This document shows, one piece after another, positions 15,201-40,600 of a stretch of 64,000 bases of DNA. Under the pieces are notes generated by a model that had not been told where the DNA came from, made no database searches, and saw only the letters and a program-made list of their open reading frames with translations. The stretch comes from Botryllus schlosseri (Eukaryota): assembly GCA_051294905.1 (NCBI GenBank), contig CM119371.1:14572001-14636000 (forward strand), in the 5' to 3' direction. How positions within the stretch are numbered: the stretch's first letter is position 1; each line of letters begins with the position of its first letter. A program made the translations under genes and the position numbers.

Positions 15201-16179
15201 TATTCCCGTGTGAGCCTGTGAGACATTGGGCATAAGATTCAACTCTAAAAGTTTATTAGTGGTTACCAAAAACTAATGTTTATACTCCATATACCATGCA
15301 TGAGATATTCTACGGCTACAGATTATCGAACAAAGCTAATACCGCACACATTGGCAGCGCAATTTACAATATCATAATTTCTTTTATATAGTTACGCCTC
15401 TGGTTCTATCACAAAGATTTGTCGTCTGGATATTCGCATACATTGATCACCAGTTGGAATGATATCCGTTCGCGTTTACGGAGCATTGATATGCACACTC
15501 GGTACGTGGCATTCAATAGCAAAAGTCATCCATGAAACCAAAACAAAGACACTGAACTCCATCAAATTCACATTAGTGGCGCACAAGGCATGAACAGGGG
15601 ATAATTGTCACGGTCGTAACTGTACGATATTGATGGAAACATTGTATAAAGTATAAATATAGCAGAATTATGGAGTCCAGTTGCATTGCCCAAATAGTAT
15701 ACATTTACCAGTATGATCGATACACCGGTGGTGTGTCTTGTGATCAACAGCTGCAACAGCTGCAATATGTTGCGAGTTCGACTCCTGTTGGAGGTTGTTC
15801 TAGGCACCTCCTCGCCATCTCATTCCCGTAAACCGTGTCTTAAAAAAGCCCAGAAGTGAGCCGTGCTACAAGTCCGTAGCTATGGAATCAAAATAAAAGT
15901 ACATTGGCCTTGTGTAAATGACCATTACAGTCGAAAAACACAATGAATACCACAAAAAAACATCGATGCACCGTCATAGCTAGCGTAGTCCCTTCATCAT
16001 GAATTTTAGATTCAAATATCGTGGCGTGAACATCGTTGTGTACGTCATTATTTACCTGTGACGACATGCCATTAATAGATTTTACCTCCGTCAAATGTAT
16101 ATATTCTGACTTCCCCCTTGGTCTTCCCCCCTGGTTATCCACCGATCAAGTATAATCCGAGGATTATGATCGAAAAACT

Positions 16180-16699: not shown

Positions 16700-19600
16700 G
16701 TATTGTATGCGCCCCTTCCCTGACTACAACCCCTTACACATAAACGAGGTGAATGCTTACGGAAAATGTTAAGCCGCTCTCCACTTGTATTTGTTTCAGG
16801 TTTTATTCGTGACGGGATTGCTCAAGCTGAGCAGGTTAGTACGTTTACCTCGACGCTGTCGTAGTATTGAATTATACCGGGATGTTATCAAATCTCACCC
16901 CTTATTCTCTCTAGTATCTTTTTATAGTTCTGAAATGCACCAGCATCTTCCCCGCGCGTATTATGTAACCTGAATTTCACATATCAAATTTCCTATGTAT
17001 AGTTTCGGCTATTATAGTATTTAATAAGCAAATCAAAATTTCTCGCGTTCCTGTGCCTTGAGTTGTAGGCCTACCAGCTATTTAGCTGCATCAAACAAAT
17101 TCACGTAGAAAGTTTTTGAATATCGACCATAGCAGTTTTGATGGAATGGGATTTGAGCTGGTCAGAGACTACTCATACAGTCGAATGTGTAGGTCTCTGG
17201 ATTGTATTTATTCAAATCTGCGGTCGCGTAATGTTGGGATCACTATGTGTTTATCCCTAAGTCCAGTAAAGGCTTGAACAAATGAACATGTCACCACTAC
17301 GACATAGGCTACAATCCCAGTTAGAGGGAATCATGGTCACGCTCTACCAACATGTAATCGATTAGGATTAACCTTCAACTATTTCAGATGCAATCGATCA
17401 CAACTACTGTAGAATCGATTAGATTCAATTACAGAATATAGACCTACATGAGTACCGAATGGAATGACCACAGCTAGTCACTCTATATCACTTAATGATG
17501 TGATACTCAAACATAGAAATAGTCGTGTTGTTTATATTGTCTTTAGTGATTGATACCATATTCATCAGGGGCAATTCTATTTGCACATACACATATTCAT
17601 AATATCTCGTTTAACGATAGGTCATATGTAATCGAGATTGCAAATTTGTACATGTATGTATGTTTGTATATAGAGCCCGGACGATCGAATTCAGTACAGA
17701 CCCGGTGATATTCTAATAGCTGGGATAATGCCGATACACAGCAGAGAAGACGAGGAATGTTCGACCATACACGAAATTGGAATCCAGGCTCTTGAGACTA
17801 TGAACATGATTATCGATCAGGTGAAGATGGTTAATATAACGTAGATTCCACCCAAACATACACTGGATTATAGCCCAAGTGCGGAGAAAATGCCTCTCCC
17901 CAACAAACTTTACTACTTGTTCATTGTCACGTCATGTATACCTATTACTTCAAAGTTAATCTGTCGCGCCACAATACTGGTAGGGAATTGTAAGTAATTC
18001 GTTCCTGATCCTATCATATGATTTAAAATATCGGTAGAACCAATGAATCGAACGTATTTCACTTCAGATTAATGCTGACCCGTCGATACTGCCTGGAATT
18101 AAAGTTGGAAGTATCATCATCGACACCTGTAACTCGGACACCCAAGCTGTCAAAAAGGTATGGAATAGCAGTCTACAATCTATGAGAAATGTTCCTCGTT
18201 AACAATTTGAGGACATCACATAGCTAGTAGCTATATATCTTTGTCGCGCTTAATCGCGTGACAGTTCGAGCGATACTGTGGCATATTACTATCGACATCC
18301 GAATATATTGAAGAAAAAGGTGTATCTGCTTTGTTTGTTCATAATCTGAGCATTATTTGCATTCTCGGAACTTAAATTGCAACAATTTATGCTCATTGCA
18401 CTAATATTCCAGTAATGCGTGGATGACAACGTGCCTAGAAGTCAAGTTGATCTATTCTATAGTATTTCATCACAAACTGGTCAATCCGTGACTCATTCAT
18501 CTATCGTCATGCCATTTAGTATGACTCGTATCGCTGCATGTAGCATTGTAGCATGTTGTTATAGATATTTCTTTATATCGTTTGCACCAGTGGTTCTCAA
18601 ACTTTTTTAGCTTGCGAATCGGTAAAAGTTCTAAATGAATTTTACGGACCGACGAACCTTCAAAAATCACAACTGACCCAAAATGTAATGACGAAAAATG
18701 CATGCAACTCACAAGCACGTATTGGGAACGTCGAATTAGTGAGGAATTTGTAGCTTCTTCGTTACATTCGTTAGTAATATGGTGAATCAAATTCGAAATG
18801 TATGAACTATTTTGTCCGTATGACGTAATAATGACAAAAACAAACAGACAGGTGAGATACGGTAGTAACGATACAAAACAGACGTTAACGAGTACATATT
18901 CGGTGATAAATAACCGAAGACAACAACACAAAACACTAATGAAATATTCCAAGAGTGTAGAGGCCCTCCTTCTGGTGACAGAGAATCGACTTTCGTAGCT
19001 TTATGATCGTAGATTCCAGGACCTTCAAATGAGAAAGAGAACGGCCACGAGCAACTATAGAAAATTGACTGTCATTGTAATGATTAGCACATTCTGGATG
19101 GGATAAAGATGCTGTGCAATAGCCGAATTACAAGCAGTAACTTGATCATAATTACGCAGTGTGTCAACAGACTGCGATGATGGAGGTTGAGAAACATTAG
19201 TTATCCTAATTTGCCGTGGGAAATGCTGGCGAATTCTTTGCTGCAAGCCCTGAGACGTGCGACCTACATACCGACTATCACATCGGCACGTGTATTCATA
19301 GAGTATGTTGCTTTCATTTGTCGCAGCTAGCACATCCTTTTGCGTTGCAGGCATCAGAGATTTCGTCATGAAGATTAACTGCGGCTCTACTTGTCAAAAA
19401 CAATGCCTCACTGACGATTTAATCTAGTTTTCAAACCTGTTGGATATTTTACCAATCCAAGGAAGATGCAAATAAACAGGACATTTTCTAGGTCCGAACG
19501 GTTTAGCTTTTTTGAAAAATCTCTGCCGCCTGAATACACGTGCCGATGTGATAGTCGGTGTCGCACGTCTCAGCGCTTGCAGCAAAGAATTCGCCAGCAT

Positions 19601-22600
19601 GTCCCACGGCAAATTAGAATAACTAATGTTTCTCCACCTCCATCCTCGCAGTCTGTTGACACACTGCGTGATTACGATCAAGTGACTGTTTATAATTCGG
19701 CTATTGGACAGCATCTCTCATCCCATCCAGAATGTGCTAATCATTACAATGACAGTCAATTTTCTATAGTTGCTCGTTGTCGTTCTCTTTTTCATTTGAA
19801 GGTCCTGGAGTCTACGATCATAAAGACGCGAAAACCTATTCTCTGTCGTCGCCAGAAGGAGCGTCTCTACACTCTTGGAATATTTCATTAATGTTTTGTG
19901 TTGTTGTCTCCGGTTATTTATAACCGAATATGTACTCGTTAACGTCTGTTTTGTATCGTTACTACCGTATCTTACCTGTCTACTAGTAGTTTGTTTTTCA
20001 TTATTACGTCATACGGAAAAAATAGTTCCTACATTTCGAATTTGATTCACCCTATTACTAAGGTTTGCTACTGATGAGAGTCAGTCGAAAAGCTTTTAGC
20101 GAATAAATTAAGAATATGAAGATATTGTTTCGCGTTATTCTGAAGCTGTGTACCCCAAATGGCTTACCTTGTATGAGTAAAGTATGGTCGATTTCGGCAA
20201 TCACACTCCACTCTATTTCAGGATAATACGGTATTCCTTACTTTTCCTTGCTTATACGTCAGTAAAAATGTATGCCAAATCGAAAGCTAAAGATAGACAG
20301 TGGATTTATCGTCATGTTCATTTCGCGCCGGCAACGTGATGGATATTCAACGATTTTCCATCACAATTATCCCTGACATTAAACGCGTGTTGTGAGTGAA
20401 TTCCCGGGGCATCATCGGAAATAGATAATCTACGCACGTACTCAAACCGAACAGATCTTTTGTCCACATTCAAAGTCACTATTTACAATAAAATCGTTTA
20501 CATTACTGGTAAAAGCGCTATTGGATACCCGCGAGTTCGGAAGTTCGCATTTCTTCCTGTCGATACCGGTATCTTTCTTACCTAATTTCGCGATATCAGA
20601 TTATATTCGGACACGAAACTAAAGTCAACACACATTAATTTTTCATACGTCATCAGTAGGGCGATTTTTTTTTGACCTAAAAAACGAAAGATTTTGACCT
20701 AAAAAATCTAAATTTTGACATTTTTTGACCTTAAAAAACTAAATTTTGACCAAATTTTGACCTAACGTATGCAAATTAGGTGTTTTCCCAAAAAATGTTA
20801 GAATTTTACTACTTATACTCATTTCTGGTTTGAATTGTTTGTCCTTACGAAGTAGTTTTCCCTGAAAAACTTGTTTGACTCAAAAACTGACAAATTTTTA
20901 CATGAAGAAATATTATTTTAACAAAATTTGGCCCTATCATGAATTCCAGTACATGATGTACTATGGTGAAAATAATTAACATTTGTTGTAGTACAACGAA
21001 AGATACTTTCCTGCATTCTCGGCAGGGATATCTAGTTCTAGATATCCCTGATTCTCGGGTGAAAAGTGTCTGTCTTTACTAACTAGCTTGCCAAGGATGA
21101 AGATGTGGCGAAGGCGAGATAGCGTAGTGGAATAATCCACAGCTACAACTCCAATGGGTTTTAGGTTATAGTCCGACCGAGGTCGACTCCAGTATTCCTA
21201 CCCAAGTGTTGAAGGTTTATCTAGGTTCCTCCTCACCATCTCATCCGCGTAAGCGGTGTCTTACAAAAAGCATAGAAGTGGGCCGTGCTACAAGTCGGCA
21301 AATACTCGGCGGATACGGAATCAAAAATAAGGAATATCGGCCTGGTGTAAATGACCATTGTAGTCGACAACACCATGAATATACAAACAGCAACAGCAAG
21401 AAGAATGGAGAAAGAACGTTGAACTGTAGCAGCTATTGGCTGGCACTGAAGTTGTGCGTGCGTACACTGCTGGTGACACACCGTGTTGCTTCATTCTGAC
21501 AATGATGTACATCTCAACTTTTGTAAGAACCATGCAATACCACGCAGTCTTGCTTCACTTAGATTATTGCGGTACGCTGACACCGTGTCAACCTATTTGT
21601 TTCATTTGACTGTTTATGATTCACAATGAGCAGACAATGCGCCGTCTTCCACGGTAGGCCTATAAAGTAGGCTACAAACTGTAAAATGTCAAGCGATAAG
21701 ATCACCGATTTCGCAAAATCTACGATACAAATAAAATGCAGGTTGCGAAAAATTTTGTCAATTTTGACATTTTTTGACCTAACGCTAAAATTTTGACCTT
21801 ATTTTGACTTTTTTTGACATGTCAAAAAAAAATCGCCCTAGTCATCAGTCTATAATTACGTATAACCAAACTGTCATTTCATGTTTACTTATAATGATTA
21901 ATACCGTTACGCAAAACGCATTGTAGTGAAGACTACAGCATATTGCTTGCGTTGAGTCTGATATACTTTCATCCATATCATATTATGATTAGACCCCGAA
22001 CGATATTGGTGAGCGAAATTTGAGCCGGTGCCGCTGTAACATATTTAGAGCGATAAACCGATATGTCCTGCCTATATTTAAATATGACGATTTCCTGATA
22101 GACTGGCGAATTAGTGGGAGTAATTTGAGTTGAAAAATATATGAATTTGATTTATTTTCCTATTTCAACTCAATAAAACACTGTTTCAATTTATTATGGT
22201 ATAGTTCAGGAACACGCAACCTTTCAGCATTTTCACCAAGTAGTGAACTCATACGATTCACATAAAGCAACTCTCTCACAGTAAGAGTGATGAGGTCACT
22301 AATGCGCAGGCTAACGGATATACCGGCTGGAGTTGACCGACATTGATATTTGTTTACTGGGACAAATATCGGTCTACTCACGATTCAGATCCCGCTGCCT
22401 GTACTTACGAAAACAAAACTGTATGATTTTGTGCTTGCTAGTTGGTGCTTGATATTCTACCACGGATGCTGAATGGTCGCCGCCCGATAAGACGCCAGCA
22501 CACGCCTTATATACCACCTTCTATAATCGCAGGTATTTGGGTTATTTTGAATGAATATATCCCATTTCGACAAATCTAGCGCCATGCACATTTAGTGTAC

Positions 22601-25600
22601 GACTGTACGTTTATATACGCATGTGGGATTATGGGTATGCACCGATAACAAAATAAGTTAACACTTTTTCAACTGGCAGATTTGCATCAGGTAGACTTTG
22701 CCAAACTATACGTGGCATTAATTGCAGTGCATCGGTTCATCGTCTTGAGTGGAAGTATAATAAAACGCCATTTCACTTCCAAACGCAAACTCCGAATTAA
22801 TTACTATCACTTTGTATCATAAATTTATATATGAGTTTATTCGATTTCTCTCTTTTGTATTCATTTGTTCTTGTGTGTTATTCTGATTTCAATTTCTCGT
22901 GAAACGTATGCGATGGTGCGGCACGCGACAGCGGCATATATTGGCATAATATGAAGTCGTGAGAGAATACGGCGATTTCCTGCCAGTCGCGACGCGAATC
23001 CAGTATGAATTCGGCTTAAACGTGGCATTTGCGGCTTCAAATTCAACTGCCATGCACGTTTGTAGCCCACGCATGTAGGAATAAAGGCATTGTCAAATGT
23101 GCAATTGTACGTGTAGTAATCTTGAACAATTATCGATGCGATCCGCATGTGCGCAGCAAACATAGTTAGAGAGAGAGCGATGCGATGCGATGCTCTGCTC
23201 ACCATTAAAGCTATATATAATTCTTCAAGTATGACCACGAGACCGCACGCTGAAACTAAGATCATACTTTTAGGGATCATTTCTATAGAGTGTATCTTGA
23301 TCGTGATTGTTTAAAATTGCGAATCCGAGCCCCGCGATGATGAGACGGAACTTCGCGGCCTGAGCATGAAACGAACTCGAAAATGGGCGTTGCCCAGATT
23401 CGTGATTGATGATTGCGCCTCTCCTTTGGTGAAGGCTGGCCGCGAGGTTGTCTGAGCGGCTTTCTTTCTCATTCATGTACTGGTTAATACGACAGCGTGT
23501 GAATCGCATGATAAATTATCACACCACACATAATATGTGGCATCTCACATGCGCCCTTTTCATTCGATTACCTGTTCCACTGCGCGATAATAGTTCTTAT
23601 TTTTATAGAATAATAACCACGCCCAGGTTCTGGACATGAACTGAATCTATACCTACACTTTATACGAAGGCTTGCCGCCTTAGTATAAGATACTTACAAA
23701 TGTGAAATGCTTCTCGCACGAATCGTCGAATTCACACCAATTCTTATTGGCAGAAATAAGTCACATACACTCCTAAACACGGTTATATATGCCAAGGGGA
23801 AAGTGTGTTGTTTATAGAAGTGGAAACTGTGCTTTAGGTCGGTTACATGCTGCTCAGTAGCGAATATATCTTCAATTGGACCTAGCTCCTTCTCGCCATC
23901 TGATCATGGTAAGCAGCCTCTTAAAAAGCCTAGAAATGGATCGTGCTACACGTCGTCAGATACGGAATCATAATGAAGAATATGGCACGTGCTGTAAAAT
24001 GACAATAGTAGTCGAAACACCATGAATACCACAATAAAATCAACAATATCAACAATAATAACAATACAATTTAATAGAATTGAGATGACTGCTCACGCTG
24101 CCCGAAAATGATATATCCCGGTTGGTTATATGCTCGATTGTTCACCAGGTAAGCGGGCTACGCGGTCCTAACTGCTCTTAACATATCGTTGCGCAGAATC
24201 TGTCTTTCAACGTGAGGGGAGCAGTTGGGGTTGTCTGGAAATTCATATATCGATTTCCGATTCAACTGCAGTATGCGTTGAAATCCAGCCCGAAGTAAAA
24301 TTGCGGCTTCCGAATAAATAACAGGGACTTTGCATTCCTACTTTGATTTCAAGTCCGAATCTAACAAGAAGTCTTTACTGTGTCTTGCCCTACCCTCGAA
24401 TCATTGTCTTCAGGTGTCGTAGGCGGATCGTCAAGCGCCGTGTCCATACAAGTGGCAAATATACTGCAAGGATTCAAAGTTCCTCAGGTGAATTATAGCC
24501 ATTGAACTAAGATGAATGACAGCTAAATACCCGATCTGTAATTTCGTGCTCTCACGCAAGGACCATAACTTGATTGAATGTATTTATCCTCCAACCAGTA
24601 TACATAGACCCTGCCACGTGTAGACTATATTTAAGGAATTTAATATCACGGCTCATCTCAGTTGATTATCGCCCTTTCCTTTTTCTTGAAGTCATACAAG
24701 TCTGAGGGTACCCCACATATCGACTGCACTTACGGGGCTTCGTTGTAGTCAATTTTGCTTGTCAGTTGTACAATGTACATACCGTAATTAAAACGATATA
24801 TAGGCATCTTTCGATCTGGTTTGAATGTTTACTGTCCAAATCTATTCTATAGTGTAGCCTTGAATCTAAATCCAGAGCTTGTGAATTTTCCAGTTACTGT
24901 CACGACTTTCATTAAATAACTCTCAAAGTCTGTCAATATCCCAGTTGCCAAACCGGATCCCTCTTTGCGAAGTCCGTGATTTAGAATTAGAGTTTTGACT
25001 TCGCCAAGTCCGAATACAGGTGGCTTATAACCACTCATATTTATGTAGATTATTTTGGGTGTAAATTATGCAAATCAGCTCCCGATGGCCACCAGACAAA
25101 TCTAAAAGGATTGAGCAAATGTATAGATGTTTTTATTCGTAACAATTAACCAGGATTTCGTAATATGTCACCGAATGCAAGGTATCTTTCATTGACGCCT
25201 AAATCAAGAGTGATAGTGTCATAATTTGGTCAGATTGTCGTTGTTGGATATTCCTGCGGTAGCATTTTGCACCAGAGCTGCCGTGATATATGCACGTCCC
25301 ATAGCCCATTCCCTTCTCAGTCTTTTTTATACTGAATATGAAAATGGAAAAGATGATGTAGCCAGTTCATACAATTCACGCGGCATGCAATACTCAATGG
25401 TTGCTCACTATACACTGAATCGAACTTTTATTATCTCGTTCGATACAAGTATCCCTCGTTGGATTCCAGGTCAGCTTCTGGTCGACAAGTCCGGACTTGA
25501 GCAACAAAAAACGCTACGAATATTTCTTTCGGGTAGTACCATCGGATATCAATCAGGTACCGCCTGCAGCGTCGCTTGAAACTGAGCCCCAGTACATCAG

Positions 25601-28600
25601 AAATTATCTTTCTCATTGTTCTGTTCATCCATTATAATAGGCGAAAGCGATGATAGCATTGGTGAAGCAGCGTGGATGGACTTACATTGCGATTGTTTAC
25701 GAAGATGACACTTACGGATTGCGCGGTTTTCAAGGTAGCAATATTCCAAATTATTGATTCCTTTCACCAGCTCGTCTCCATTACTGCAAATGAATACCGT
25801 GTGCTCCATCACGGGGTCCGGGGGAAATCAGGTCAACGGCATTTTCCGATGCGAAATGTTGCTTTCACGACCATTCCATTTAATGAAAATGGGGCAAATA
25901 CCATACACCAATCAATATCGATATATATCCCAGGAGTTGTACTTGCGTGTGCCAAGCTAAGAAAGAACAAGTTGGTATTTTGGGTATCCACGCTATTTCA
26001 GTTACATTGGTTATTTTACACCGCAAGCCGATATGCCTTCTTGCGGTGGTTTCCCGCCTTTTTTCCTTCATTCCCAACTTCTGATTCTTTTTGGGTCACC
26101 ATGAATATGTACCGATTTTTGTCTGAGATTAGCTTCTCTGGAAAGCTTTAACTTCCGCGTCTACTCGGTCAGGGTTTGTTTCTTTTATTCACACAATTGG
26201 CGCTTATCAACAGTTGGGTCATTTGCGCCCGTTCACAATTTCATAAGTTCGCATCTTTTGAGGTCTTTCCGCTTTCTTGCGTACTTTTTCTGGTCTCTGC
26301 TGTCAGCTTTCCTGAGTTCGACTCTCTCCTCGTCTGGGCTTTTGAAGACGGTGTATTTATGGCGGGATCGGCGATGAGGATCCGAGATAAACTTCCGTCA
26401 CATCCCTAGGTCAGGGTAAAACGAGGGGAGGAGCGAGACCCGTAAATGCCCATAAACATTCGATATTGATATGCCCGACCGTAGAATAAGTCAACAGCGC
26501 ATCGCCCCGTCCTTGTAATCTGAGCACCGCCGCAAAAATGCGGCCCACATAAAAATAATGTACGCTAATTTCAAATCGCGAGCGTCAAAACTGATTGTCA
26601 GCATTTTCTCTATTTGATTCATGCCCGTAAAACGCAGCATACTAACATTAAAAATACATTATTTTGAAGTGTGAGGATTGGGTCTCGAGATGCCAATAAA
26701 ATTGACATTTGGTTCGCGATCAAAAATTTAAGAAACTCTGCTGTATAACAAGGCCTATATTAATTTTGTAATTCACAGAACTAAGAGATCTGGGCGAAAA
26801 GGAAGGAGTATGCATCAGCGCGTTTCACCCGGTGCCACGCAGCCCGAAACAGCATCACTTCGAGGCTATAGTGACAGACATATTGGCTACTAAATCTAGA
26901 GGTATGGTATACGTCATCGGACCAAATGTGACGTTACTAATAGCGCTAACTATGAGCTAATCCATCCGTCGATTTATATTCGAGCGTCGTGCGAAAGTTT
27001 ACAACTGCATAAGTGTGCGCCGACAATTCACAGTATATTATAATACTATATAGAATTCTCTACGTATTACGTCTGTCACATTCCTTTTCCATGATCAGAC
27101 TTCGTACAAACGTGTTCCGATTGATTACAGTTTTGAGAAATTGCCACGTCCAGACACCTGGAAATTAGTAACTGGATAATTCCCGAGGTAGAACTATAAA
27201 TTGATGGCTGCGTAACTTGTATCGCTTTATATCAAACGGCATCTACATGCAGGTGGGATTTTGCGTGGACCACAGTGTAAAATGATATGAAATGATCGCA
27301 ATCCTCTTGACGACACTTAACATACTGAATTTTTGAATTTGTATTGGCCTTAGCTATTTTGCAGCACACTTGGTTGAGGTATAGTTCGCCTTACTAATCG
27401 ATCAGTAGAAGTAATACCGTACATTTCTACTCAATTACAATTCAGTCTTAGCGGGAAGGGTGTGGATTTCCACCCGTGTATGTGTACCTGATATACGGGT
27501 GTTCATATACACCCATGGAACAAGAAACCATAACCTACCTCAGATTTATACCGCGGTATTAATCAGGCAAAACATTTTAATCCAAAGTATGCTTGCACGT
27601 AGGAACGTAGGCACGCAGTGTAGGCATGTAGGTAGGGATGTGTACAAAACAAAAAACACTTTAAAATCAAAAACAGGGCCCTGTTTTAAAACATGTTTTT
27701 TCTTTTTTTCTATGTCATGACGTCATGTATATTCAAATGTGACGTCATAGTCTATTGGTATTCACAATTGAAAATATAGGGTAAATATAGCTCCCTAGAC
27801 GAAATAGACTTCCAACCCTTGTCATATGCCTACCAAAAATATCAGTAACCAGGACTACATCGTCTTGCAGCATTTTTACGGTCGGCGGTCATCATCATCA
27901 AAACATTCATTCCGTACCAAAGATCTATATCTATATCTATACGTACTATAACTGTTGAGCCGACTGTTTCGAGGGTTCCAACCATCCCGTATCGTATACG
28001 TCGGCATGATCGGGTGATAATCAACGTCCGTTGGCTCATACAACATGTTTTTTGAACGTTTTCACACAATTATGGCATAATTACACAAGTTGAATTTTTT
28101 TTAATATAAAGGCCATTGTTAAAATTACTTTGTTTTCAACAGTTTTAAACAACCATTTGTTGTAAATGCAACCCTACCGTGATGCATGGCCATTTCCTCC
28201 AGTAGATATAACAATATCACTTATCTAAATGATACAGACATCACAAAACTACTACTAATTTGCCAATCAACGCATCTATGTTCGCGGTGTTTATCATGTA
28301 CTCAAATTATAAATCGCGATTGCACCCTAGCGTCAAGCACCATCACGATCAACGGACACTAGCTGGTAAGAGGAAAGTGGGGGTGAATAATGTACCTAGC
28401 TAGGCGTAGTACTAGGGCTTGTCACAATGATTGTAGTATCAATTTTATTGAGTCGAGTTTTTCGATTAAAACGAGTGTACGCCTTCAAACTTACAGTAGT
28501 GTTTCATCAACGCAATTAGAGTTTGAATACGTTATCTTCACCGACAGAGTATCCATACCTGGGTAACGCCCGGATTGCGCCTATACCTGTCGTATTATTA

Positions 28601-31600
28601 CTCATTTTTCCTCACTCGCGAATATACACGCTGCAATTTAAAAGTAGCCACCTCCGGTTGACTGCTATGAGTAATTGAGTATGCGACCCCCGACCATAAA
28701 TATCTTTTGAAACTACTTATGTGATTTCATGTCTACATTTCCAAAGCTAGCTAAACTTTGACCACCTCCGTCGCTAACATATATTGCAGCCGTGATTGTC
28801 TTCACGAAGAGCAATGACGCGTCAAAACTCATGAAAGCCGCGCAGGAGGTTGGCGGTCAGGCGCGGGAACTTCTGTTGATAGGCTCAGACGGCTGGACGA
28901 ACGAGATTCCTAATCCCGCCGACGTATCCGACGACGAGATCTTGCACGGTAGTGATTTCTAATAGGTCTACCTAGGTATAGTCACCGGCAATCACATTAG
29001 GACAATCCTATATTGCTCACGTGTAACTGGATGATAATGATAATGATAGCCTGGCCCTCCTCGCCATCTGATCGGCTTAAGCGGCATGTTTCAGAAAGCC
29101 TATAAGTGCGTTGTGCTACAAGTCGGCAGATAAGGAATTCCAATCAAGAAAATCGGCTTAGTTTAAATTAGCATTGCAGTCGAAAGACACCATGCCCACT
29201 ACAAAACAACAACAATCTGGATGACAATAACTAGCGTATAAGTGTTACGTTGAACAACAGCATCGCTGATAGATTGTGGAATGTGGATCCCAATTCGATC
29301 TCAGTAAGCGGTGTGTTAAGACTAGCAGAGCCGTGCAGTTAGAGTCAGACTTCACTCATTTTAGTCCTGACGGAGTCGCAGTCACTGAGATTATTTAGCA
29401 CTCTTTGGAGTCGGAGTGGGAATTGGGAACACATGCTGTTTGGATTCGGAATTTCGTAAAACCTAGCTACTCCTACTTTAAAATCTAACTAAATGTTCTC
29501 GAAGGTTATTAGAAAGTGTCGTTAGATTCACAGACGTAATTAAGTTGGTCACTTAGACGCACTTTCACCAACTTAATTTCTTCCCCCGGACACATTTTCT
29601 AAAAATAGGCTGGGTAGGTTGATTCACGTCGCAATATCAAAAACCTAAACTCCATAAACATATATTTGGCTGAGTAGATTTAAAAAGATCTTGTTGTCAG
29701 AGGTGGAGTCTGAGTCGGTGTGTTTAATGTTTCCGGAGGTCCGGAGACAGAATCGGAGTAGGTGTAACAAAAATGTGCCTTGGACGAAAGAGTGCTGCGC
29801 GGGGCTATTGCAGCACCGAAGCACCACGCATATAGAAACAACAACACCGCTTACGTATTACAGGCGCTGTAGGATTCCACCCATCTGCCAGTTCGCTGCA
29901 AGACTTTGACGAGTACTTTTTGAATCTCACGCTCGCACAGAATCTGAACAACTCCCGCAACCCGTGGTTCGCCGAATACATCTCGAAGAGTAACTTATGC
30001 GACGTAGGAAATGGTGATTACGTTTAGATTTATCTCATTATACACAATGTCAATGCCTATACTTGAGAACGATCCGATATCTCGTAAAACTAGGATATTG
30101 ATCAGTGAGTGAATCGCCGGGGTTCAAAATTATAGTTACAGGTCGAATACCATTCGATCCAGTCCTGCAAAAGAGTCATTGCTCCTTAATTTATCATTGT
30201 TGAACTGAAAATACATCGTATTCGCTCTGTTATGTCCACAAATATACTGTGCGATCATCTTGTTTGAGAAATTAGTGACACGAAACTCCTGAAAAAAATT
30301 GAATTTTCATCAATCTTCTCGTAAATTTGAAACGGCGCAATATTCTCAAATATGCGATATAAAACGTTCAGATTGCAACCTCCATACATTTTCTACATAT
30401 ACGCATAAATTGCGTTGGTAGATGCATATCTGATGTCGTGATATGTCCATCTCCCTGACAGTAATCACCGGAAGATGTGTAATAAATAGTTTTGACTATA
30501 AAAGTCCACTGGAATTCCGATGTTGACCAGCCACGAATTAAACTCTGGCATCCGTTTAGGGCAGTTGTTCCCAACTTTTTCTTTTCATTCCCCACTTCAG
30601 ATTTATTCCGAGCCTTCATTCCCCACAACCCAAAACTCCTATATACCCCCTAAAAATGTCACTCCATAACATTTGGCCAGACGTTTGACAGGGACTTGCT
30701 ATTGGAAACCCGCACCAGTACGCAATACAATCGCCCATAACGGCAACATAAAACGTATTGTGAACCGATACCGGTAACCCTCGAAACATATAGCCAAAAC
30801 GTTATTTGACGTCATACTGGTCGTGCTGGATGCGTTTGTGACGTCATGATTGATTAACCATAGTTAAAAACTGAGTTTTTATGAACACGACGCAATATAC
30901 TTTTCGATAGGCCTACCTACAGCAGCACATGTGTGGATTTGAAGGCGATGATTCTTTGCATTTTTGGGCGACTAGAAAGAATGAGTATTCAATGCTCTTC
31001 AGTGTGGTTCAAAAATGCTTGTCAATTCCTGCATCTAGTGCACTTGTGGAACGTGTATTCAGTAGATGTATGGATTCATTCTACGGCCATGCCGCTTTAA
31101 CATATTTGAGGATCTCCTTTCCACATTAGTATTTTTGAGGTGTAACTCATTGATTTGATCTGCTTCCTGTGAAAACACACAATGCCCCTCGTCCATTTGA
31201 CGTTTTGTTAGGTATGTGCATTGTACACGTGAGTAATAATGAATGGCTAATGTTGTGTGATGTTTGTACAATATGGCTGTTCTAAAATACCTTTTTTATT
31301 TTACTGGGTGGTTACATGATAAAATTGTTATGTTGCATGAAAGGAACACTGAATCTGGCTTCATTTGGAAAAAGTGGAATCAATGATGTGAGAGGAGAAT
31401 ATTTGTGATTTGAAAATAAATGGAGTATTTTAGTGAGAAATTCTTTCATGTATTATAATTACATAGTAGTAAGCCGACTATTTTTTCATATCCAAAACAT
31501 TCTACTCTAATAACTTCACTTTTTCTAGTTGGAATTGAGTCAAATTTGCTATGAATCATATTTTTACACAATGTAACAATATCATGAGATAGCCGGTAAA

Positions 31601-34600
31601 ATTCGAAAATCTCTATTTGTAATTAGTCTAAAATTTTCTTTCATAGCTTTCTACTGGTTGGAATTGAGCCAAATTTGATTTTTTAGGCAATCTAGCAATT
31701 TTAAGAAGTAGCCGGAAAATTTGAAAAAATGTTTTTGAACAGCCCCATTGTACAATTATTTATCCAATGCTGTAACTGCGATGTAGTCTGTAATGCAATT
31801 GGGAAAACCTTTAGTATAATCAAAAGGTATCTGTTCTGTTGTCACTGCACAATGCGCATAGTTGCATGCACGCTTTTAGAGCATGCTGGCCTGTTGTAAA
31901 TACCTCTACATAAACATGCATCTATTGATTCTCTATCAACTAGTATCTTGACGTGAATTTGTTGGTTCTCTATCAGATAGTATGTAGACGTGAATTCGTT
32001 GGTTCTCTATCAGCTATTCGTGAGCTATCGTCGATGTGTTCATAATAAAAACTGAATGCTTGTATTGGTGATGTATCAGACTGACAAGAGAGATATTTGA
32101 TTTTAAGTTCTAAGATTAGTAAAGGTATCTTTAGCATCGGTAAATCAGGCCAGGACCTGTCCGTTATCTGCCTAAAAAAAATAAACACGTGCCAAGACTC
32201 TGATAGGGACAAAATGAGCATGTTTCGCAAACAGGGAATTCGATATCACCCAGGCAGGATTGAAAACATGAGTTGAACATGACTTCAATATTGTGACTTG
32301 GACTCGACTCGAGTCATAACACCATGACTCGGACTTGACCCTTTAAACGGTGACTTGGACTCGGACTCGAGTCTGTGATGAATTGAAAATGACTCGACTC
32401 GACTCGAGTCAAAACTACAAAAGTATGATTGACTCGTGACTCGGAACCATGTGACTTGTTTACAACCCTGCATTACAGATTCCAGAGCGTTAACTGGTTG
32501 CGGTACTCGCGCATGGGTTTCCGTAAATTTGTACACTATCCTGTATATATTGTTTAGGAAATGCGTCTGTTGCCCCCCAGTGGGGAATTCCCCATCGGTT
32601 GGGAGCCACTGGTACCCCCTCGTTTCGCGAGGCATAATGTTCAAGTTGAGCATGATGCTCAAGTTGGAAATTAGTAAGATAGGAGCATTATAGCCACATC
32701 AATCTTCAAAGGATGCATATATATTTCAACAGTGATGTCACGTATAAAGTGTTACGTAACTAGCCGCCTTTCGCTCCTTTTAGGACTCCCCGCCAACGCT
32801 GATGGCTACGTTATGTGCTGGTAGGGCTGTTTCAATTGCTATGTAATTACCAATACGCTGAATTTAGAGGAGTAGAATCGTACCACTGAATCGATATACG
32901 ATCATCGATACTACAATGTTGCTAACATACGTTTACCGGTTTAGGAAGTGCAGTACGCGGACGAGAATGCGACATCGATGAAAGAGTCAACCCAGACTCT
33001 TTCCACAGTATGGCGCTTATGCAGGTAAAGCTATTGCTGCCTGCGTGGGACATTCAATTAAAACAGATCGCATGGAGTGAATCATCGTACTATGTGCGAG
33101 CATCACGCGTTTCAGCAGCATGCGGCACCTATAGCCATGTATCATGTTGCTTTACACATATAAGCTATGCAGTGTTGATGAGCTGCATTCTGTAATCGAC
33201 AAGCCGTGTGCTATATCACGTGGCCATTGATAATTTATCTTTTTCTTACATACTGTATTCGCACAATCGGGCTAGTCTAGTACTTGGTTCAATCTATCTT
33301 AACGTTACGTGCAGTTCAGCAACCCTGCTACTTCAATGAGAAGCCCTTTATTCGTCGATAAAACAGTATCATCCTACTCTAGAGTAACCTATATCGGCAG
33401 ATGCGCATGCGCTACTCAATCGTCACACTTGAATACTCAGATAGTTCTAATGCCGAGTCGGCCAAAAGCAGCATAATTCGTAGACCTACAGCTGGTAACC
33501 CGAAAGCTCAAATCTGATAAAATGGATGTGGATATAGTGAATGACTGTGTATTGCTAACCTACGGATTTACGCAGCTCAAGTCGTCACACTTGAATACCC
33601 AAAGAGATATACTACTATGTCATCGCAAACCACTATAATAATAATTGGTAGACCTATAGCTGGCGACCTGAGCGCTCATATTTAACAACACTGATCGTTA
33701 TCAAAAGCTAGTGTCGCACTGATACCGGTAAAAACTAATTAAAATCTGGTGAGGACAATGGAACCACTCCGAAATAGGTGTTAAAGCCGATTGTTTCGAA
33801 CAATCTGAGTGGGGCAACACCATGAGCATAACAATGGCCAATTTCGTCGAGCGATTTTACAGAAAAATGCCGCTTTCCCACTTTGACGACTATTTCGGGG
33901 TGGTTCCATTGTCCCGACCAGATTTTAAGTTGTATTTTCGGAATCAGCGCGACATAGTAGCTTTTGATTGACACCAGTCCAACAAATTATGCCAAACAAC
34001 TGTCTATTTTACAATTCAGTTATTGGTGCAAATACTTCCGAATTCATCTCGTTTATTACGATATTCTTTCTTTACCGCAGCATGTGGGCGACGCTGTTTT
34101 GGCATTGATCCACGCGCTTGACGAACATCACAAAAAAGTATGTAAGGGCAAGCATGAAATGTGCTGGGCGATATCACGTGACGTCGGTACCACTCGCCTG
34201 GCTTCGAAATTGGTCCCGATTTTGAAGAGGATCAATTTCACCAGTAAGTGCTCGTTAACGTTTGCAACAACCGTTGGAAATTCATTGTAAATACGAGGGT
34301 CTTGATGAGGTGCTTTAACCAGATATCCATGCGCCGAGTGGAAATCAGGCCATCAGCACATTCTGCTGCCAAATTTAGCTTTTCAACCCATTACTATGTT
34401 GTGAAAACCAGTGAAATAGGCCAATCAATATGGAGCCCGGGGATTTAGTGGCCTCTGTGTACTTACTACCTCTAATAGCATTCCCAAAGTATTAACTTGT
34501 CTCGTGAAAGTGCGCCCTTACCTTATTAGAACTCAATGCTAGGGGAATTGGATGAGAATTGAATAAGGGTAAGTAAAAAATCAATTTTAAGCATTTGGGC

Positions 34601-37600
34601 TCGATTTTGATAAGGTAAGCTTCCTGAACTGTATTGAATTGTAGTCCCCCTTTATCATTGCTGAGCATTTTTTAATTAGCATATAGTTTTTGTAAGAACA
34701 CAGAAATCAACCTTTTATGGGAACCGACGGTATATAGGCAGGTTGTGAAAAGCAATAATACCCCATCCAAATTTCTAATCGGACATCTTCTCTCGTCTGC
34801 ACAATCGACTACACAAATTATTTCCAACGCCCGCATTTCAATTTTAATCCTGGTTGCGGTTCTATTTCTCGTTTTGTTTTTATTAAATTCAATAGACCTG
34901 AATAGTGATTGTATTCCTAAATTCTTTCGCTTTGATAGATTCCAACGGAAAGGCGGTATATTTCGATGCAACTCAGGACGGGCCAACGTCGTACGATATT
35001 CTCAACTACAGAATTGATCGCAATGTTACGCCGAAATCTCGTATAGAACGATGGGAAAAAGTGGGATTCTTCGTGAATGATGGTAAGACAAGAGCCACCG
35101 TGGTCCTAAATACCATTACAAAATAAATCGTTCACCTGATCGATTGTTTAATCATGAGTGCAATGATGTCGCAATGATTGAATCGGGCCCGTTGAAAGAA
35201 TATTTGCGCCTTTTCATCATAATTTGGTAAATGGGAAATCTCAGGTTTCACATGACCATCATCTTCACCTGTTAATAATAAACAGGCATTTTGCAAAAGC
35301 CTTGTCCGAGTATTATCCTTGTTGCGTAGTATCGCTGTAAGTTTTATATGTTGTGGCTGTAATCCAGATATACACTTGTTACTTTCTAGCTATCCACTGG
35401 AGTAAGAAATTAGTCGACAAGGTGTATTCCACAGAGTCGGTCTGCAGTAAGGCATGCGGCCCTGGGATGGCTACCATAATTGAAACAGAGGTATAGTAAT
35501 ATCCATCTATTTCCAACAGAGGTGGTCAGTGTGACGAAGTACTTGTACTTTTTGCTGGTACTCAAATAGCTTTTTCGTAGTTTTGCTGTACACGCCCAAA
35601 TGGTCTTGCTTTTATATACGATAGGCCTATACGTAACAGTTTTCGGGCAAATTGTTTGGAAACGCTTGGGAATTTGAAAAGTAGATAATAGGTTTTGGAT
35701 TTGCTTGCATCCTTTTCATATGAGAAAAGAGTGAAAACTGGACGAAAAAGCCAATGTATCAAGGTAATTGGATATCTTTTCAAAGATTAGTTTTACTGCC
35801 ATCGGTCGTTTTGCGTTAGTCGCGATGATGCACCCAGAAAACTGGCCCACTTCGGTTAACCGCTAAACGTATGCGATCCATCAACCACAATTACTTTAAT
35901 AGAAATTTACGGCGTTACTCCTTCTACTTTAGTAGCAATCCCGACTACCTTCACTACCTCTGTTTACCAGTTACATAAGGTGCTCCCATTTGCCGGATAG
36001 GTTATATGTTACTTGACATAGCAATTGCTATCATCTAGGCTACTTAAGATGAAGTTGCTATTAGGAGTGCCATATTTTTAAATTGACCCCGACATCTTGC
36101 AGAAATATGGAACTATTTGTCATCGTTGAATTGTTTCATTTTACTGTTTTGTTAACTCTCCTACCTTTAGATTTGCTGCTGGCATTGCGAGCAGTGCGCG
36201 GACTATGAGTATGTGTCCGATAACGGCACATCCTGCTCCAAATGCCCGCCAGGGCGCAAGCCGAACTTCTACCAAACGGGCTGTGAACTGCTTCCAGTTA
36301 GGTAAGTAAGAGTTGAAATCATTTTTGCAAATGGACACCTCTACAGTGAAGCAAGTTCTATTACTGGACAAAGCAACCGCAAAACATTCAGTTGAAAATT
36401 ATGATTTTTATTCCAAGAGAAATATCTTACCAAAGGGATTACGGAATCGCGTGCGTGTGCGTCAGTTGTGTGGGGCTACTTCTGACGCTGATTGTCACGG
36501 TGATCTATGTGATGCACAGGGACACACCTATTGTAAAAGCTTCCGGAAATGTAAGTACATAAGTAAAATTATATTGTAGTGCGAGTCGATCATGACTTGA
36601 CATTTATGTTGTACCATTCATATTCTTAGCCTTGTGCATAGTGTTTTCCAATGCTGAGTTACGTTGAACCGAGGCCCTAGATCTCGGTGTCACAACTTCA
36701 AGACTAAAGTATTTAAACTGTATATATGGGGGACGCTGGGCTCAGGGGAGAAGCGCTGAAAATATTGCGTCGCAGTAGAAGGTGCAGTAGGGACATTATA
36801 GAGTAGAAAGAATGTTCTATATATTCCTGAGTTCTCTTTGCAAATTACCATTCGATAAAATCTGTCAAATCTCGAAATATTTCGTCGCCCTGCGCGCGAA
36901 ATATGTGCTGTCAATGTTTGCAACATATTTTCATGTACGCAGTGGTGTATTATAATTCACGTAAAATGCATTGTACGTACTTTTAGACCGCCAAACCCCC
37001 GCGAAATTACTCCCATCACGCTAGCGTGGGTTATTTTCCACAAAATGTTTCAAATTAGGTATTTGATCCCGCAGCGAATATCGAGTCGAAATCGAAGAAG
37101 GAAGCATTGTACCACTTTTAATAGTGAGGGCCCTTAGTACAGTAAAGATGCTTTAAAGCTTTTTGGTCAGAATACATTTGCATTTGAGAGATGCAAAATT
37201 CAATCTTCAGAATATTTCTTCATCTTATCATTAAGGATGATGATGTTTAGTCTTATGACCCGCAACCTCACCTCACATGAACGTTCCGTTATAAAATATG
37301 GGTTGCTTTGTTTGGAATATATTCATGTTCAAGTGAAATACTGGATGCAGTACTAAATTCAATGTGAACAAAGATCTCAACCACTATCTCAGCTGATTTA
37401 CTAGTCATGGAAAGCAATAAAAGAAAATCCACGCAATGCAAGGTAAATTTTGGATGTCTACACCGGGCTACAACCAGATGGTATGAGCCCGTGCCCGATG
37501 GTTGTTATAACAACTTTAATTTGATCCCGAATATAGCACACACCATTGTCATAGCGTTAATTAGTCGAGTGGTTCTCGGGTGCAAATCAAGCTATTTCCA

Positions 37601-40600
37601 ATAGTAAAGTCCCAACCTGAAATGACCGACCGGCCTTCGAACTCTTACCCCTTGTTTCACTACCGTCCTTAAAATATGAGGGGGGGGCACAAGACCTAGG
37701 TTATTTTCGAAAAGGGGCGCTGCGGGAACAAAGGTTAAGAACCACTGATTTAAGAGTATCGAAATCAACAGAAAACACAACCCCACTTTCTTTCTATTTC
37801 AGGAACTCTGTTTCTTCATTTTGTTCGGAATTACGATCACTTTTCTCAACTTCTTCGCGATGGCGGCGCGACCCACTCTCACGTCATGCGCCATATCGAG
37901 AATAATACTGGGACTGGGGCCCACTATCATCTACGCCGGGCTGGTAACGAAGACGGTGCGGGTTGTGATCATCTTCCGCTCTAAGGGTACCTTGAAGTTG
38001 ATGGTAATTAACGAATTTGAATTTATAGTGAATTATGTTTATTTCGAACACCAACTCGTTTTTCATTCATTGGGCACTGACACAGTCACTAGCATTGGTG
38101 GAATCCACTCTACACGTTTAGAGCAACTTTTCACGAGAGTGATATTTTTGATTTGACCCTCGCACTAACTATATTAGGTCTTTGATATTGAAATTTTGCC
38201 ATATCAACAATATATGCTCGGGCCTAGGAAGTTCTTGAAGATGGAGCGTGGTATAGCAAGTGTAAAAGATGCGATCAACTGCATTTTGCAATTCAGAGAA
38301 TGTTGTACGGTATGAATTAGGATTTACGCGAACACGAATGTTACATACACATAAATCCATGCAATATCCCCATAATTTATGTTTGCTTGCAGTATTACAG
38401 TCATATTTTAAAACCGAAAGTACATTCGGTATTGTATGTATAAGAGTCACACTTATAGGTCGCGAGGTATTTCCAATCAACATTTTCGAGACCAAACCGC
38501 CGTATGGCAGCTGTCGCTGAAAAACAGATTTCTGGCAACTCATTTCTGTAGTATTCAGTATTCACCGCCACATAGCGCCATCTAGCGCGGTGATCGTCGG
38601 AAGTTCAAGAACTTTTCGAAACCAGTCGTGTTCTACACTACAAGTAAATCTCGACGGGCCATATCTACCGGTAATCAGATATTTGGTAATCTCTGAGTCT
38701 CGTAAATCTAATGAAACACACGAAACGGTGCGTTTAATGGGGGGTAACTGAGTTTTACGCATATTTTGTCAAGAACAAGATTATATCGATATGCAAACTG
38801 CAGAGTACGCCTACGTGCTTTGTAAGCTCAGCATTCAAGACTGAATGAAGCAATCCGATTGTCAAGTTGCTGTAATGTAACATAAAATAACCCAGGCAAT
38901 TTGTCTGCCAGCACATTAAAGACGCGAGATTACACCTTACTCATTGTCCATGTGCACTGTGCAGTATGTCACCTCGCCAACTCAACATAACACGTTCAAA
39001 TCTCTTACAGACGAGAAAATACCTGCAGCCGTGCTACCAACTCTTGACAGCGTCCGGATTGGTGCTGTTGCAAGTTCTTGTGGTATTGCTGTGGCTGATT
39101 TTGAGCCCGCCCGAAGTTTCCGAACACTATACGACGAGCGAAATCGTGTACCGCGCCTGCAGTCATTTGGTCGATCTGCTAATCTTCATTGCGCTTCTAT
39201 ATCCGTTTCTTTTAATCGTAATCTGTACAATAGTAGCCACTGCGAACAGGCACATCCCGACTGGATTCAATGAGACAAAATATATCGGTGAGTAGCCGAC
39301 TTCATTGGTTCCAGACATTCACCTTGTATAGCAGCTAGATATGAAGCAAAAACTAACCTGCTCGGTAAGAGCATGGACGATGTTTTATGACGTCAATGCG
39401 AAAGCACTTTCATGCGACTGAAGGCGAATCTGCTGTCCAATCAAATGTGTTCAAATTATCGCAGTATATGTGACATTTGCAGCGCTCGTGCCCCTTGAGA
39501 GCTTTCATTAATATTTCTCGCAACAACAACAATTGATGTTAACAATATTTAAACTAACCGGACGATTGACATGAAATCGAACGTTGCGCGGACACTTATT
39601 TGGAGTTGAATAAATCTGCCCATAGAAATTCCAATTTTTGTTGGTTTGCAAAATATTTTGGACGATAGTTAGCGTACCCTCTGATTTGGTGCTTCTTACT
39701 CCGTATTGGTCCTCAGGCTCCTAGTTAAGAGCCATTGCATAAATGGAATGGATATTTTACAACCTTGATTCCGTTGAAATTTTGTGTTTAAAACCAGAAA
39801 ATACCATTAATAAGGACCCTGTAAAGTCGACATATATGCTATATTGCAGTGGTCGGGAACCTTTTTCGTCTGAAGAGCCATGTTAGCCCTATATTTTCCA
39901 TTTTAACTCCAAGAGCCATGCATGTCCATCGATTGTTACGTCGCAATTGAAAATTCCTATTACAAATAATAACTCCCTAAATGGGATTAATCGTGGGTAC
40001 CAGATTTTCTCTGTAAAAATTGGTAGGCTACTAATAATCCTGTGGTAGCGCAAATCATCGTAAATATCTTAGAATTTATAATAATTGATATTAATCTAAT
40101 ATAACTGTAGCACTAATTCCAAAAATCTAAATATTGATCGACTTCTCAATTCGGCGGTACAATAAACGTTGCAATACACGCCTACATTTTAATGGCAGTA
40201 CTAGAAAGCTACTTATCAATGACGAACGCGGGTGGCAAAGCGTTATTTGTAATTTAGATTTGTAATTGGAATGTCACATCCAAGGCAGCTCATCTCTCGG
40301 CGTAGATCAGGAAGACAGCGTGCATTTGAAAACTAGATCGTCATATAGGCGTCCCCATGTCAGGCTATTCTCTTTGATCAACCAACGTGTGGTGTCATCC
40401 AAGATTACGCAGCGTGCGATGCCGGTACATCGAATTCGCGAGGGATATTAGTCGCTGGCGCTACAGGAACTTAAATTTGAGAATTTTGTGAAGGGGTCCA
40501 AGCCCTTAACCTGGGATACGCCACTGTTTTGACCTCTTAAATAGATGTTTATGGTGCCACGAGTGTAATTATTCTAGCCGTTAATAAAATTTACTAACAA

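Follow-up and report, generated by a model that had tools for sequence, protein, structure and literature searches.

The window analysed here is a 64,000-nucleotide stretch of the Botryllus schlosseri genome (assembly GCA_051294905.1, contig CM119371.1, here C1, positions 14,572,001 to 14,636,000 of the forward strand). It holds a gene for a class C G protein-coupled receptor (GPCR) of the metabotropic glutamate receptor (mGluR) family, hereafter the receptor, and, 15.5 kb beyond its last recognized exon, an intronless gene for a Gq-alpha-like protein. The receptor gene has an 844-codon open frame in 21 GT-AG exons on the plus strand between 15459 and 41143, with no stop or frameshift, and its product has, in order, a signal peptide, a Venus flytrap domain (VFT), a cysteine-rich domain (CRD) and seven transmembrane helices (7TM). 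Judging from the sequence comparisons below, we consider it fairly probable that this is an intact ascidian class C GPCR from the tunicate branch of the glutamate-insensitive class IV, or mXR-type, mGluRs, which would sense some other amino acid.

Exon borders were placed by GT-AG ends and phase on a six-frame translation, with the upstream exons found through similarity to paralogues; the splice pattern thus derives from the sequence and the paralogues rather than from RNA. The initial annotation had set the gene at 17674..34243. The 11 exons in that span do have GT-AG ends and agreeing phases and join into a stop-free frame, but the gene reaches from about 15459 to at least 41143: 19 exons from 17674 to 41143 give 818 stop-free codons, and two small upstream exons bring the total to 844 (Table 1). 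When single exons were compared with Pfam, PF01094 and PF00003 scored over the cut-off and PF07562 under it, and the CRD cysteines are present. Paralogue comparison and an acceptor scan past 41143 found no exon for a C-terminal tail. A hydrophobic open reading frame (ORF) at 9574-9622 was rejected as the first exon, since it is in an incompatible phase and the paralogues indicate 15459. The introns are rich in repeats.

RNA reads were mapped from 4 of 24 runs, covering 6% and 13% of the two raw runs, and intronic repeats dominate the mapping. Almost no read depth fell on receptor exons, and none of the gene's GT-AG joints is among the 15 listed of 116 RNA-read joints. The mapping neither confirms nor denies the splicing of the receptor. 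One RNA contig piece (depth 4.5) begins at 17672, and the depth of 0.23 in the first bin equals that of a 35-base piece at that depth; this fits the 35-nt micro-exon, but is only a hint. Slight RNA support is compatible with a dead or mis-assembled gene whose pocket changes would be meaningless, as are the broken copies in the array (one reduced to a transmembrane (TM) remnant with stops, one that breaks off after the T188 exon, and paralogue P5 with its frameshift). Such a reading is scarcely credible given 844 codons without stop or frameshift, a nonsynonymous divergence (dN) far below the synonymous one (dS), and the same substitutions across paralogues and species. The gene is under purifying selection and almost certainly functional.

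The predicted ligand pocket retains the machinery for gripping an amino acid and has lost the residues that would hold the side chain of glutamate. In mGlu1 numbering, the receptor has Ile at Y74, Ala at R78, Asn at W110, Ser at S164 and S165, Trp at S186, Thr at T188, Asp at D208, Tyr at Y236, Lys at E292, Asp at D318, Glu at R323 and Leu at K409. The roles of these positions are taken from PMC6307864, PMC4928972 and PMC5372683. All five residues that bind the amino-acid backbone (S165, T188, D208, Y236 and D318) are thus kept, as the initial annotation had proposed, and the motifs from which it argued (GGSSS, WST, VPSD, TYG and SDGW) all occur on the plus strand in the six-frame translation at the places it gave.

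The same annotation read Ala at the R78 position (GIQALETM), Leu at the K409 position (LMQHVGDAV) and Trp where mGluRs have Ser or Ala, and each of these readings was borne out by alignment. With exon 17674-17820, phmmer gave alignments to mGlu2 and mGlu3 that were gap-free around GIQ and put Ala (17788-17790) on the Arg of GIQR, at single-exon E-values that are weak (0.07-0.2). Exon 25470..25556 aligned to residues 150-177 of chain 1ewk_A (mGlu1). We take this chain to start at residue 33, an offset of 32 that is consistent with Thr landing on 188; the exon then corresponds to mGlu1 182-209 and places Trp at 186, Thr at 188 and Asp at 208. A profile of exon 34081..34243 set the Val of HVGD on chain residue 381, which is residue 413, so that Leu (33016-33018) occupies position 409. 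A full alignment with mGlu3 and mGlu5 orthologues agreed with the single-exon register. A check for a substitute Arg or Lys found none within about 10 residues of position 78 or 409, and a small slip in register would therefore restore no basic residue. Other receptors share the bulky residue at 186: arthropod mXR has Phe there, and Trp is found in all nine paralogues examined as well as in Styela, one Ciona protein and two echinoderm proteins. A structure model of another protein, Styela P0180, matched mGlu structures with TM-scores up to 0.80 in a fold search that gave no residue-level view of the pocket; in that model the equivalent of 409 lies just ahead of a helix start, which leaves side-chain placement there uncertain.

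From work on mGlu, CaSR and mXR, the receptor would be expected to act as a dimer. Its loop exon (22442..22532) lacks the cysteine common to P1, P2, P4, P5 and mGlu3, and with this cysteine absent the receptor may not form a covalent dimer. An L-alpha-amino acid would dock its amino and carboxyl groups on S165, T188, D208, Y236 and D318 and close the flytrap, and the CRD would relay this closure to the 7TM domain and then to a G protein. In the side-chain site, the positive charges of lobe 1 would be lost (Ile at 74, Ala at 78, Asn at 110, Leu at 409), Glu323 added and one wall formed by Trp186, so that glutamate should be a poor agonist. Read from its residues, the site is uncharged to acidic, as in CaSR and DmXR. 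The receptor is very probably not a micromolar glutamate receptor, and the pocket residues support the proposal of the initial annotation that an mGluR-family receptor here binds an alpha-amino acid other than glutamate and works much as mXR does. CaSR, which has lost R78/K409 and Y74/W110/R323, has shifted away from glutamate and favours aromatic amino acids (PMC4928972). As ligand we would guess an amino acid or derivative that is neutral (aliphatic or aromatic) or cationic and acts in the high-micromolar to millimolar range; a neutral side chain in particular is possible, though we would put it a little short of even. The likeliest role would be peripheral chemical sensing, with paralogues tuned differently; we regard a peripheral or chemosensory role as evenly balanced against any other.

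As far as the residues tell, Lys292 in lobe 2, on which the initial annotation is silent, is the sole feature that keeps an acidic ligand possible. On this account the receptor could still bind glutamate, aspartate or some other acidic ligand at low affinity, Lys292 replacing the lost charges: Lys292 is also present in C5-A (a paralogue on contig C5), Clavelina P0017 and Ciona P0179, Arg occupies the site in group II mGluRs, the genome yielded no canonical mGluR to fill the role (see below), and low-affinity glutamate binding was left open for the Styela receptors in the available text of PMC9138782. Several considerations oppose it. R78 is absent in all eight paralogues with that exon in hand, Glu323 adds a negative charge, and DmXR, which also has Ala at 78, is blind to glutamate. 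Group II mGluRs, moreover, require R78 and K409 besides the Arg at 292. Taken together we find an acidic ligand improbable, and a ligand other than glutamate remains our preferred reading.

Exon searches revealed at least 10 loci of the receptor family (broken copies included) in two arrays, seven on C1 and three on C5 (8.91-9.05 Mb); on C1, 14.24-14.43 Mb lay outside the paralogue examination. The receptor is the outlier of the C1 array, at 57-60% identity, and its earliest-branching member. Exon phases are identical in four near-complete paralogues, one of which carries the frameshift. In comparisons of the receptor with P1, P2 and P4, the proportion of synonymous differences (pS) was 0.62-0.85, at or near saturation, and dN was 0.24-0.38. 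The common exon phases and the saturated synonymous sites with low dN argue that the pocket is not a product of chance. R78 is absent in all eight copies with the exon in hand (Ala in seven, Leu in one) and in all five named ascidian proteins that cover the site. Position 409 varies: Leu in the receptor, Thr in P1 and P2, Arg in P4 and P5, Lys in C5-A (taken from a splice junction) and Ile in C5-B. Lys or Arg therefore stands at 409 in three of the seven family members read there; C5-C, in which 409 is unreadable and the R78 exon lies outside the stretches examined, is not in these counts. C5-A (Ala78) and Ciona P0179 (Ser78) keep Lys409, an exception to the published class IV rule.

Position 188 is Ser in P1-P5 and Thr in the receptor. 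This bears on whether the receptor is a partner subunit that forms heterodimers with its paralogues, like T1R3 or GABA-B2, and gives little signal alone. The many co-located paralogues, the absence of the loop cysteine and the position of the receptor as the earliest branch of the array are compatible with such a role. However, all five backbone residues are kept, including the Thr188 that other C1 paralogues changed to Ser, and Clavelina P0017 likewise lacks the loop cysteine. We give this possibility little credence, and an agonist-binding receptor remains the preferred reading.

No group I-III mGluR was found in the genome by an exon-by-exon search that scores best candidates only, in an assembly that may be incomplete; with mGlu3, mGlu5 and Ciona P0112 as queries, the listed hits were confined to the two arrays and to a C12 locus resembling CaSR. 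The hits obtained score far below what a canonical mGluR should give, and glutamate-type mGluRs are probably absent. The CaSR-like gene (C12:2204500-2221600, minus strand) is apparently the sole non-mGluR VFT-7TM locus matched by mGlu queries. C5:15724847-15725335 has a PF01094 match but gave no hit with mGluR or CaSR queries, and is probably another receptor type, e.g. an iGluR or a guanylyl cyclase.

A profile of the TM4-TM5 exon (five copies) matched 641 proteins at E<=0.001 in a HMMER search, and the 150 best of these were examined. Single exons used as queries in word-based protein searches returned no match at E<=0.001, which reflects limited sensitivity, given that HMMER found 641 relatives. 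Among the matches listed, those closest to the spliced protein were Clavelina P0017 (44.5% identity), Styela P0180 (43.0%), Ciona P0179 (41.9%) and Styela P0019 (38.9%). Arthropod mXR-type proteins followed (35-37%, 511-527 bits), while four named class I-III proteins scored 442-457 bits and CaSR/GPRC6A/T1R-type proteins had 24-28% identity. Arthropod rows were called mXR-type by 'mGluR B' names together with a match to the Drosophila class IV motif (PMC6307864 supplement), and unnamed rows were called class I-III by tree position and R78, which is partly circular. Drosophila class IV carries the same GIQAL motif as the receptor.

Trees were inferred with FastTree from 43 rows (12 of 55 dropped) and with IQ-TREE (LG+C20) from 31 rows (12 more dropped as near-duplicates, fragments or long branches). 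In the IQ-TREE tree the C1 array formed a group (100/100) within an ascidian clade of nine rows (99/99; inner eight rows 100/99). The ascidians joined the mXR and echinoderm/brachiopod rows on an unstarred branch (93/91), with classes I-III apart (92/86). CaSR/T1R rows were the outgroup; the receptor fell on the mGluR-side branch (100/100). The VFT-only tree from which nine pocket-area columns had been removed (for S165 the column removed was its neighbour) gave clades of 0.93 and 0.99 with all seven mXR-type rows and none of the nine class I-III rows. At 27 diagnostic columns the receptor has 11 class-IV and six class-I-III states. The sequences place the receptor in an ascidian GRM clade with Styela, Ciona and Clavelina, and its descent from class IV is likely.

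Besides the slight RNA support, a number of points weigh against this assignment. The TM-only tree does not resolve the ascidian placement, the ascidian branches are long, and a tree constrained to unite the ascidians with classes I-III is 7.2 log units worse, yet the approximately unbiased (AU) test does not reject it (p-AU 0.152). The diagnostic columns are mixed in other tunicate rows (Styela P0180: five IV, 10 I-III), and the trees contain neither amphioxus nor Drosophila class IV sequences, nor the reference class IV set of the defining paper. As to function, Lys292 stays near the pocket; Leu409 also occurs in the group III-type Saccoglossus protein P0080, which keeps R78, so that Leu409 by itself cannot be diagnostic; the coupling of DmXR is to Go rather than to Gq (PMC3646046); and the ligand, expression site and coupling of the receptor are predictions. 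The phylogenetic points among these would favour an independent origin, in which ascidian receptors descend from a group I-III mGluR, have lost R78 and K409 convergently, and group near mXR through long-branch attraction; such receptors would work alike. The six class-I-III states and the basic 409 (Lys in C5-A and Ciona P0179, Arg in P4/P5), unlike the published class IV rule, point the same way. Yet the free whole-protein trees and the VFT tree without pocket columns all favour the mXR side, BLAST scores are higher to mXR-type proteins, and an aromatic 186 and Ala78 are common to the receptor and mXR. An independent origin thus appears unlikely. The suggestion in the initial annotation of an independent lineage is weakened accordingly: in the trees, the ascidian clade that holds the gene falls on the side of mXR, and what survives of it is the unrejected AU alternative and the TM-only tree. 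We continue with class IV as the preferred reading.

Table 1. Exons of the receptor gene, the neighbouring Gq-alpha-like gene and paralogous loci (window positions unless a contig is named; residues in mGlu1 numbering)
Feature	Position	Strand	Basis or remark
Probable first coding exon with ATG, hydrophobic core of signal peptide and phase-1 donor	15459..15501	+	Homologous exon upstream of P3, P4, P5; predicted
35-nt micro-exon closing signal peptide	16800..16834	+	Flanked by AG and GT, phase 1 to 0; P3, P4 and P5 have similar micro-exons
VFT exon: Ile at Y74 (17776-78), Ala at R78 (17788-90)	17674..17820	+	Alignment
VFT exon: Asn at W110	18068..18157	+	Alignment
VFT loop exon without Cys of P1, P2, P4, P5, mGlu3	22442..22532	+	91 nt; length and phase same in 4/4 paralogues
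VFT exon: S165, third Ser of GGSSS (24434-36)	24414..24487	+	Alignment
VFT exon: Trp at 186 (25479-81), T188 (25485-87), D208 (25545-47)	25470..25556	+	PF01094 over cut-off
VFT exon: Y236 (25713-15)	25641..25734	+	Alignment, Pfam
VFT lobe-2 exon	26779..26901	+	GT-AG, phase
VFT exon: Lys at 292 (28807-09), D318 (28888-90), Glu at R323 (28903-05)	28790..28948	+	Alignment
VFT exon with RNPWF motif	29864..30013	+	GT-AG, phase
VFT exon: Leu at K409 (33016-18)	32945..33024	+	Alignment
VFT exon, helix from position 412 onward	34081..34243	+	Profile
VFT C-terminal exon	34939..35082	+	GT-AG, phase
Linker and CRD start exon	35390..35490	+	Exon joining
CRD exon	36171..36301	+	PF07562 E=4.8e-7, below cut-off as single exon
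TM1 exon	36418..36550	+	Exon joining
TM2-TM3-intracellular loop 2 exon	37803..38003	+	PF00003 over cut-off
TM4-extracellular loop 2-TM5-intracellular loop 3 exon	39011..39287	+	PF00003 over cut-off
TM6 exon	40869..40951	+	Exon joining
TM7 exon, ends at GT donor common to paralogues	41016..41143	+	Read-through would hit a stop one codon on
Intronless Gq-alpha-like gene, 354 aa, first of tandem array	56652..57716	+	Similarity, Pfam; family confirmed by structure-atlas search
TM remnant with stops	C1 14.12 Mb		No VFT exon in the 10 kb examined
P1	C1 14.17 Mb		Intact over 19 exons
P2	C1 14.22 Mb		Intact over 19 exons
P3	C1 14.44 Mb		Exons found only as far as T188 exon
P4	C1 14.48 Mb		Intact
P5	C1 about 14540085 (locus 14.52 Mb)		Frameshift in twelfth VFT exon, or assembly error
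C5-A	C5 8920300-8939700		Ala78 and Lys409

The Gq-alpha-like gene adjoins the main receptor array. Four intact copies and one broken copy follow it within 70 kb (C1:14657834-14699427), making six in the array; another Gq-like copy sits at C1 20.18 Mb, and C15 carries a Gq gene that has introns and the usual C-terminal ending. Identity between the window copy and the others is 56-59%, compared with 63-94% among those others. Its last residues are unlike those of canonical Gq, and it begins Met-Gly with a Cys-Cys pair. By rough arithmetic, adjacency of a receptor and a Gq gene has a chance of about 1 in 4000 for one named pair, but is unremarkable against a background of some 200 GPCR genes and about 10 G-alpha loci, and is a lead only. 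That the receptor couples to the neighbouring Gq copies is doubtful. A bolder scenario, which we think improbable, is that ascidians lost all group I-III mGluRs and class IV became an amino-acid taste family, enlarged in this genome into paralogues whose side-chain pockets differ, with co-expanded intronless Gq proteins as private transducers and the arrays serving as receptors for the amino-acid and amine cues to which settling larvae are drawn. If a receptor-G protein pair had seeded the arrays, the most divergent members should lie at the junction, as is seen for the receptor and the window G-alpha. A search of the open-access literature found no paper on an ascidian intronless Gq array; the available passages of PMC12176390 report divergent Gi proteins in Ciona and do not mention tandem or intronless Gq. 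Further intronless G-alpha-like ORFs include a Gi-like pair (C9:16135834-16152961), two weak matches (C15:18966164-18970531) and a very divergent one without the usual P-loop motif (C7:2022409-2023362).

The window also contains remnants of hAT transposases, with a Hermes DNA-binding domain and a hAT dimerisation domain, upstream of the receptor gene (11642-12271, minus strand) and inside it (30911-31126, plus strand). An inverted duplication of about 500 bases (about 18840-20050) occupies the intron preceding the loop exon. RNA reads derived from other copies, including some that carry poly(A), map to it, and an ORF within it (19415-19888) resembles by eye the end of a retroelement protein, with no Pfam hit. 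ARAGORN predicts a tRNA-Arg(TCG) at 2676-2749 on the minus strand.

By itself the receptor is one more orphan of a described type and carries modest weight. Any novelty attached to its pocket pattern by the initial annotation is removed by earlier work, in which loss of R78 and K409 is already known. PMC6307864 defines class IV mGluRs, in all members of which R78 and K409 are replaced and the five backbone residues kept, and reports them from all bilaterian phyla studied except vertebrates; its mGluR table has no tunicates and no Ciona entry. PMC9138782 describes four tandem Styela clava GRMs that keep five of seven residues, compares them with DmXR, and locates GRM4/7a/7b expression to the anterior trunk of the larva and to endostyle, pharynx or siphons. 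Ciona has three mGluRs and no T1R (PMC2396169). The open-access literature search turned up no paper that places ascidian GRMs in class IV or describes this receptor array. What is new here is the set of at least 10 loci in two arrays, the variety at 409 among paralogues, the failure to find group I-III mGluRs and the adjacency of the Gq array; what interest remains comes from the likely lack of glutamate-type mGluRs, the pocket variety and the Gq array.

The ascidian names 'GRM3/4/7' would on our reading point to class IV-type receptors rather than to orthologues of the namesake vertebrate receptors. If this is true, the sister group of vertebrates retained a class that disappeared in vertebrates, and glutamate-sensing mGluRs may be missing from it. 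With the backbone grip fixed, the paralogues vary naturally at 74, 110, 292, 323 and 409, a series that suits the deorphanising of class IV, and C5-A, with Ala78 and Lys409, is a natural test of Lys409 acting alone. For class IV, the available passages of PMC6307864, PMC2695807 and PMC3646046 give only canavanine and an unidentified endogenous ligand. Ciona larvae are attracted by amino acids and taurine via an unknown receptor, and this attraction is blocked by a phospholipase C (PLC) inhibitor, which the authors tie to GnRH signalling (PMC12922724). This PLC-inhibitor-sensitive receptor, together with the anterior-trunk expression in Styela (PMC9138782), makes the receptor genes candidates for the amino-acid or amine attraction of ascidian larvae, with a bearing on biofouling. 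Taurine fits poorly as a ligand, since the alpha-carboxyl grip is kept.

Of the known systems, the Styela clava receptors Sc-GRM3/4/7a/7b (RefSeq 'mGluR7-like' P0019 and P0180) are like the receptor in clade, tandem layout and Trp186. At 39-43% identity, they keep the five backbone residues and have lost the two gamma-carboxyl residues, as the receptor has. In contrast, the family is larger in Botryllus (at least 10 loci including broken ones, versus four), its C1 array is a separate expansion (100/100), the residues at 74, 292, 323 and 409 differ, and the available text on Styela does not mention an adjacent Gq array. Clavelina lepadiformis 'mGluR4-like' P0017 and Ciona P0179, the closest by BLAST among the matches listed, have Ala or Ser at 78 and Lys at 292; their names are automatic, and they are not one-to-one orthologues of the receptor in the trees. 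Class IV receptors (DmXR/mangetout and its arthropod orthologues) have Ala78, a non-Lys 409, an aromatic 186, the backbone residues and the VFT-CRD-7TM order, as the receptor does. DmXR ignores glutamate and responds to canavanine at 0.5 mM (PMC2695807). However, identity to the arthropod proteins is only 35-37%, the receptor has Leu at 409 (Gln in mXR), Glu at 323 (Arg), Lys at 292 (Ser) and Trp at 186 (Phe), and some Botryllus paralogues have Lys or Arg at 409; given these pocket differences, canavanine cannot be assumed to be the ligand. Vertebrate mGlu1-8 share the fold, the backbone residues and the CRD cysteines, but the receptor lacks R78 and K409, and the free trees of whole proteins and of the VFT place it outside groups I-III. 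CaSR, GPRC6A, T1R and V2R are alike in combining the backbone grip with an altered side-chain site, but form a separate class C branch (24-28% identity, outgroup 100/100). Tandem expansion with pocket variation, as in the two Botryllus arrays, recalls the chemosensory class C arrays of fish.

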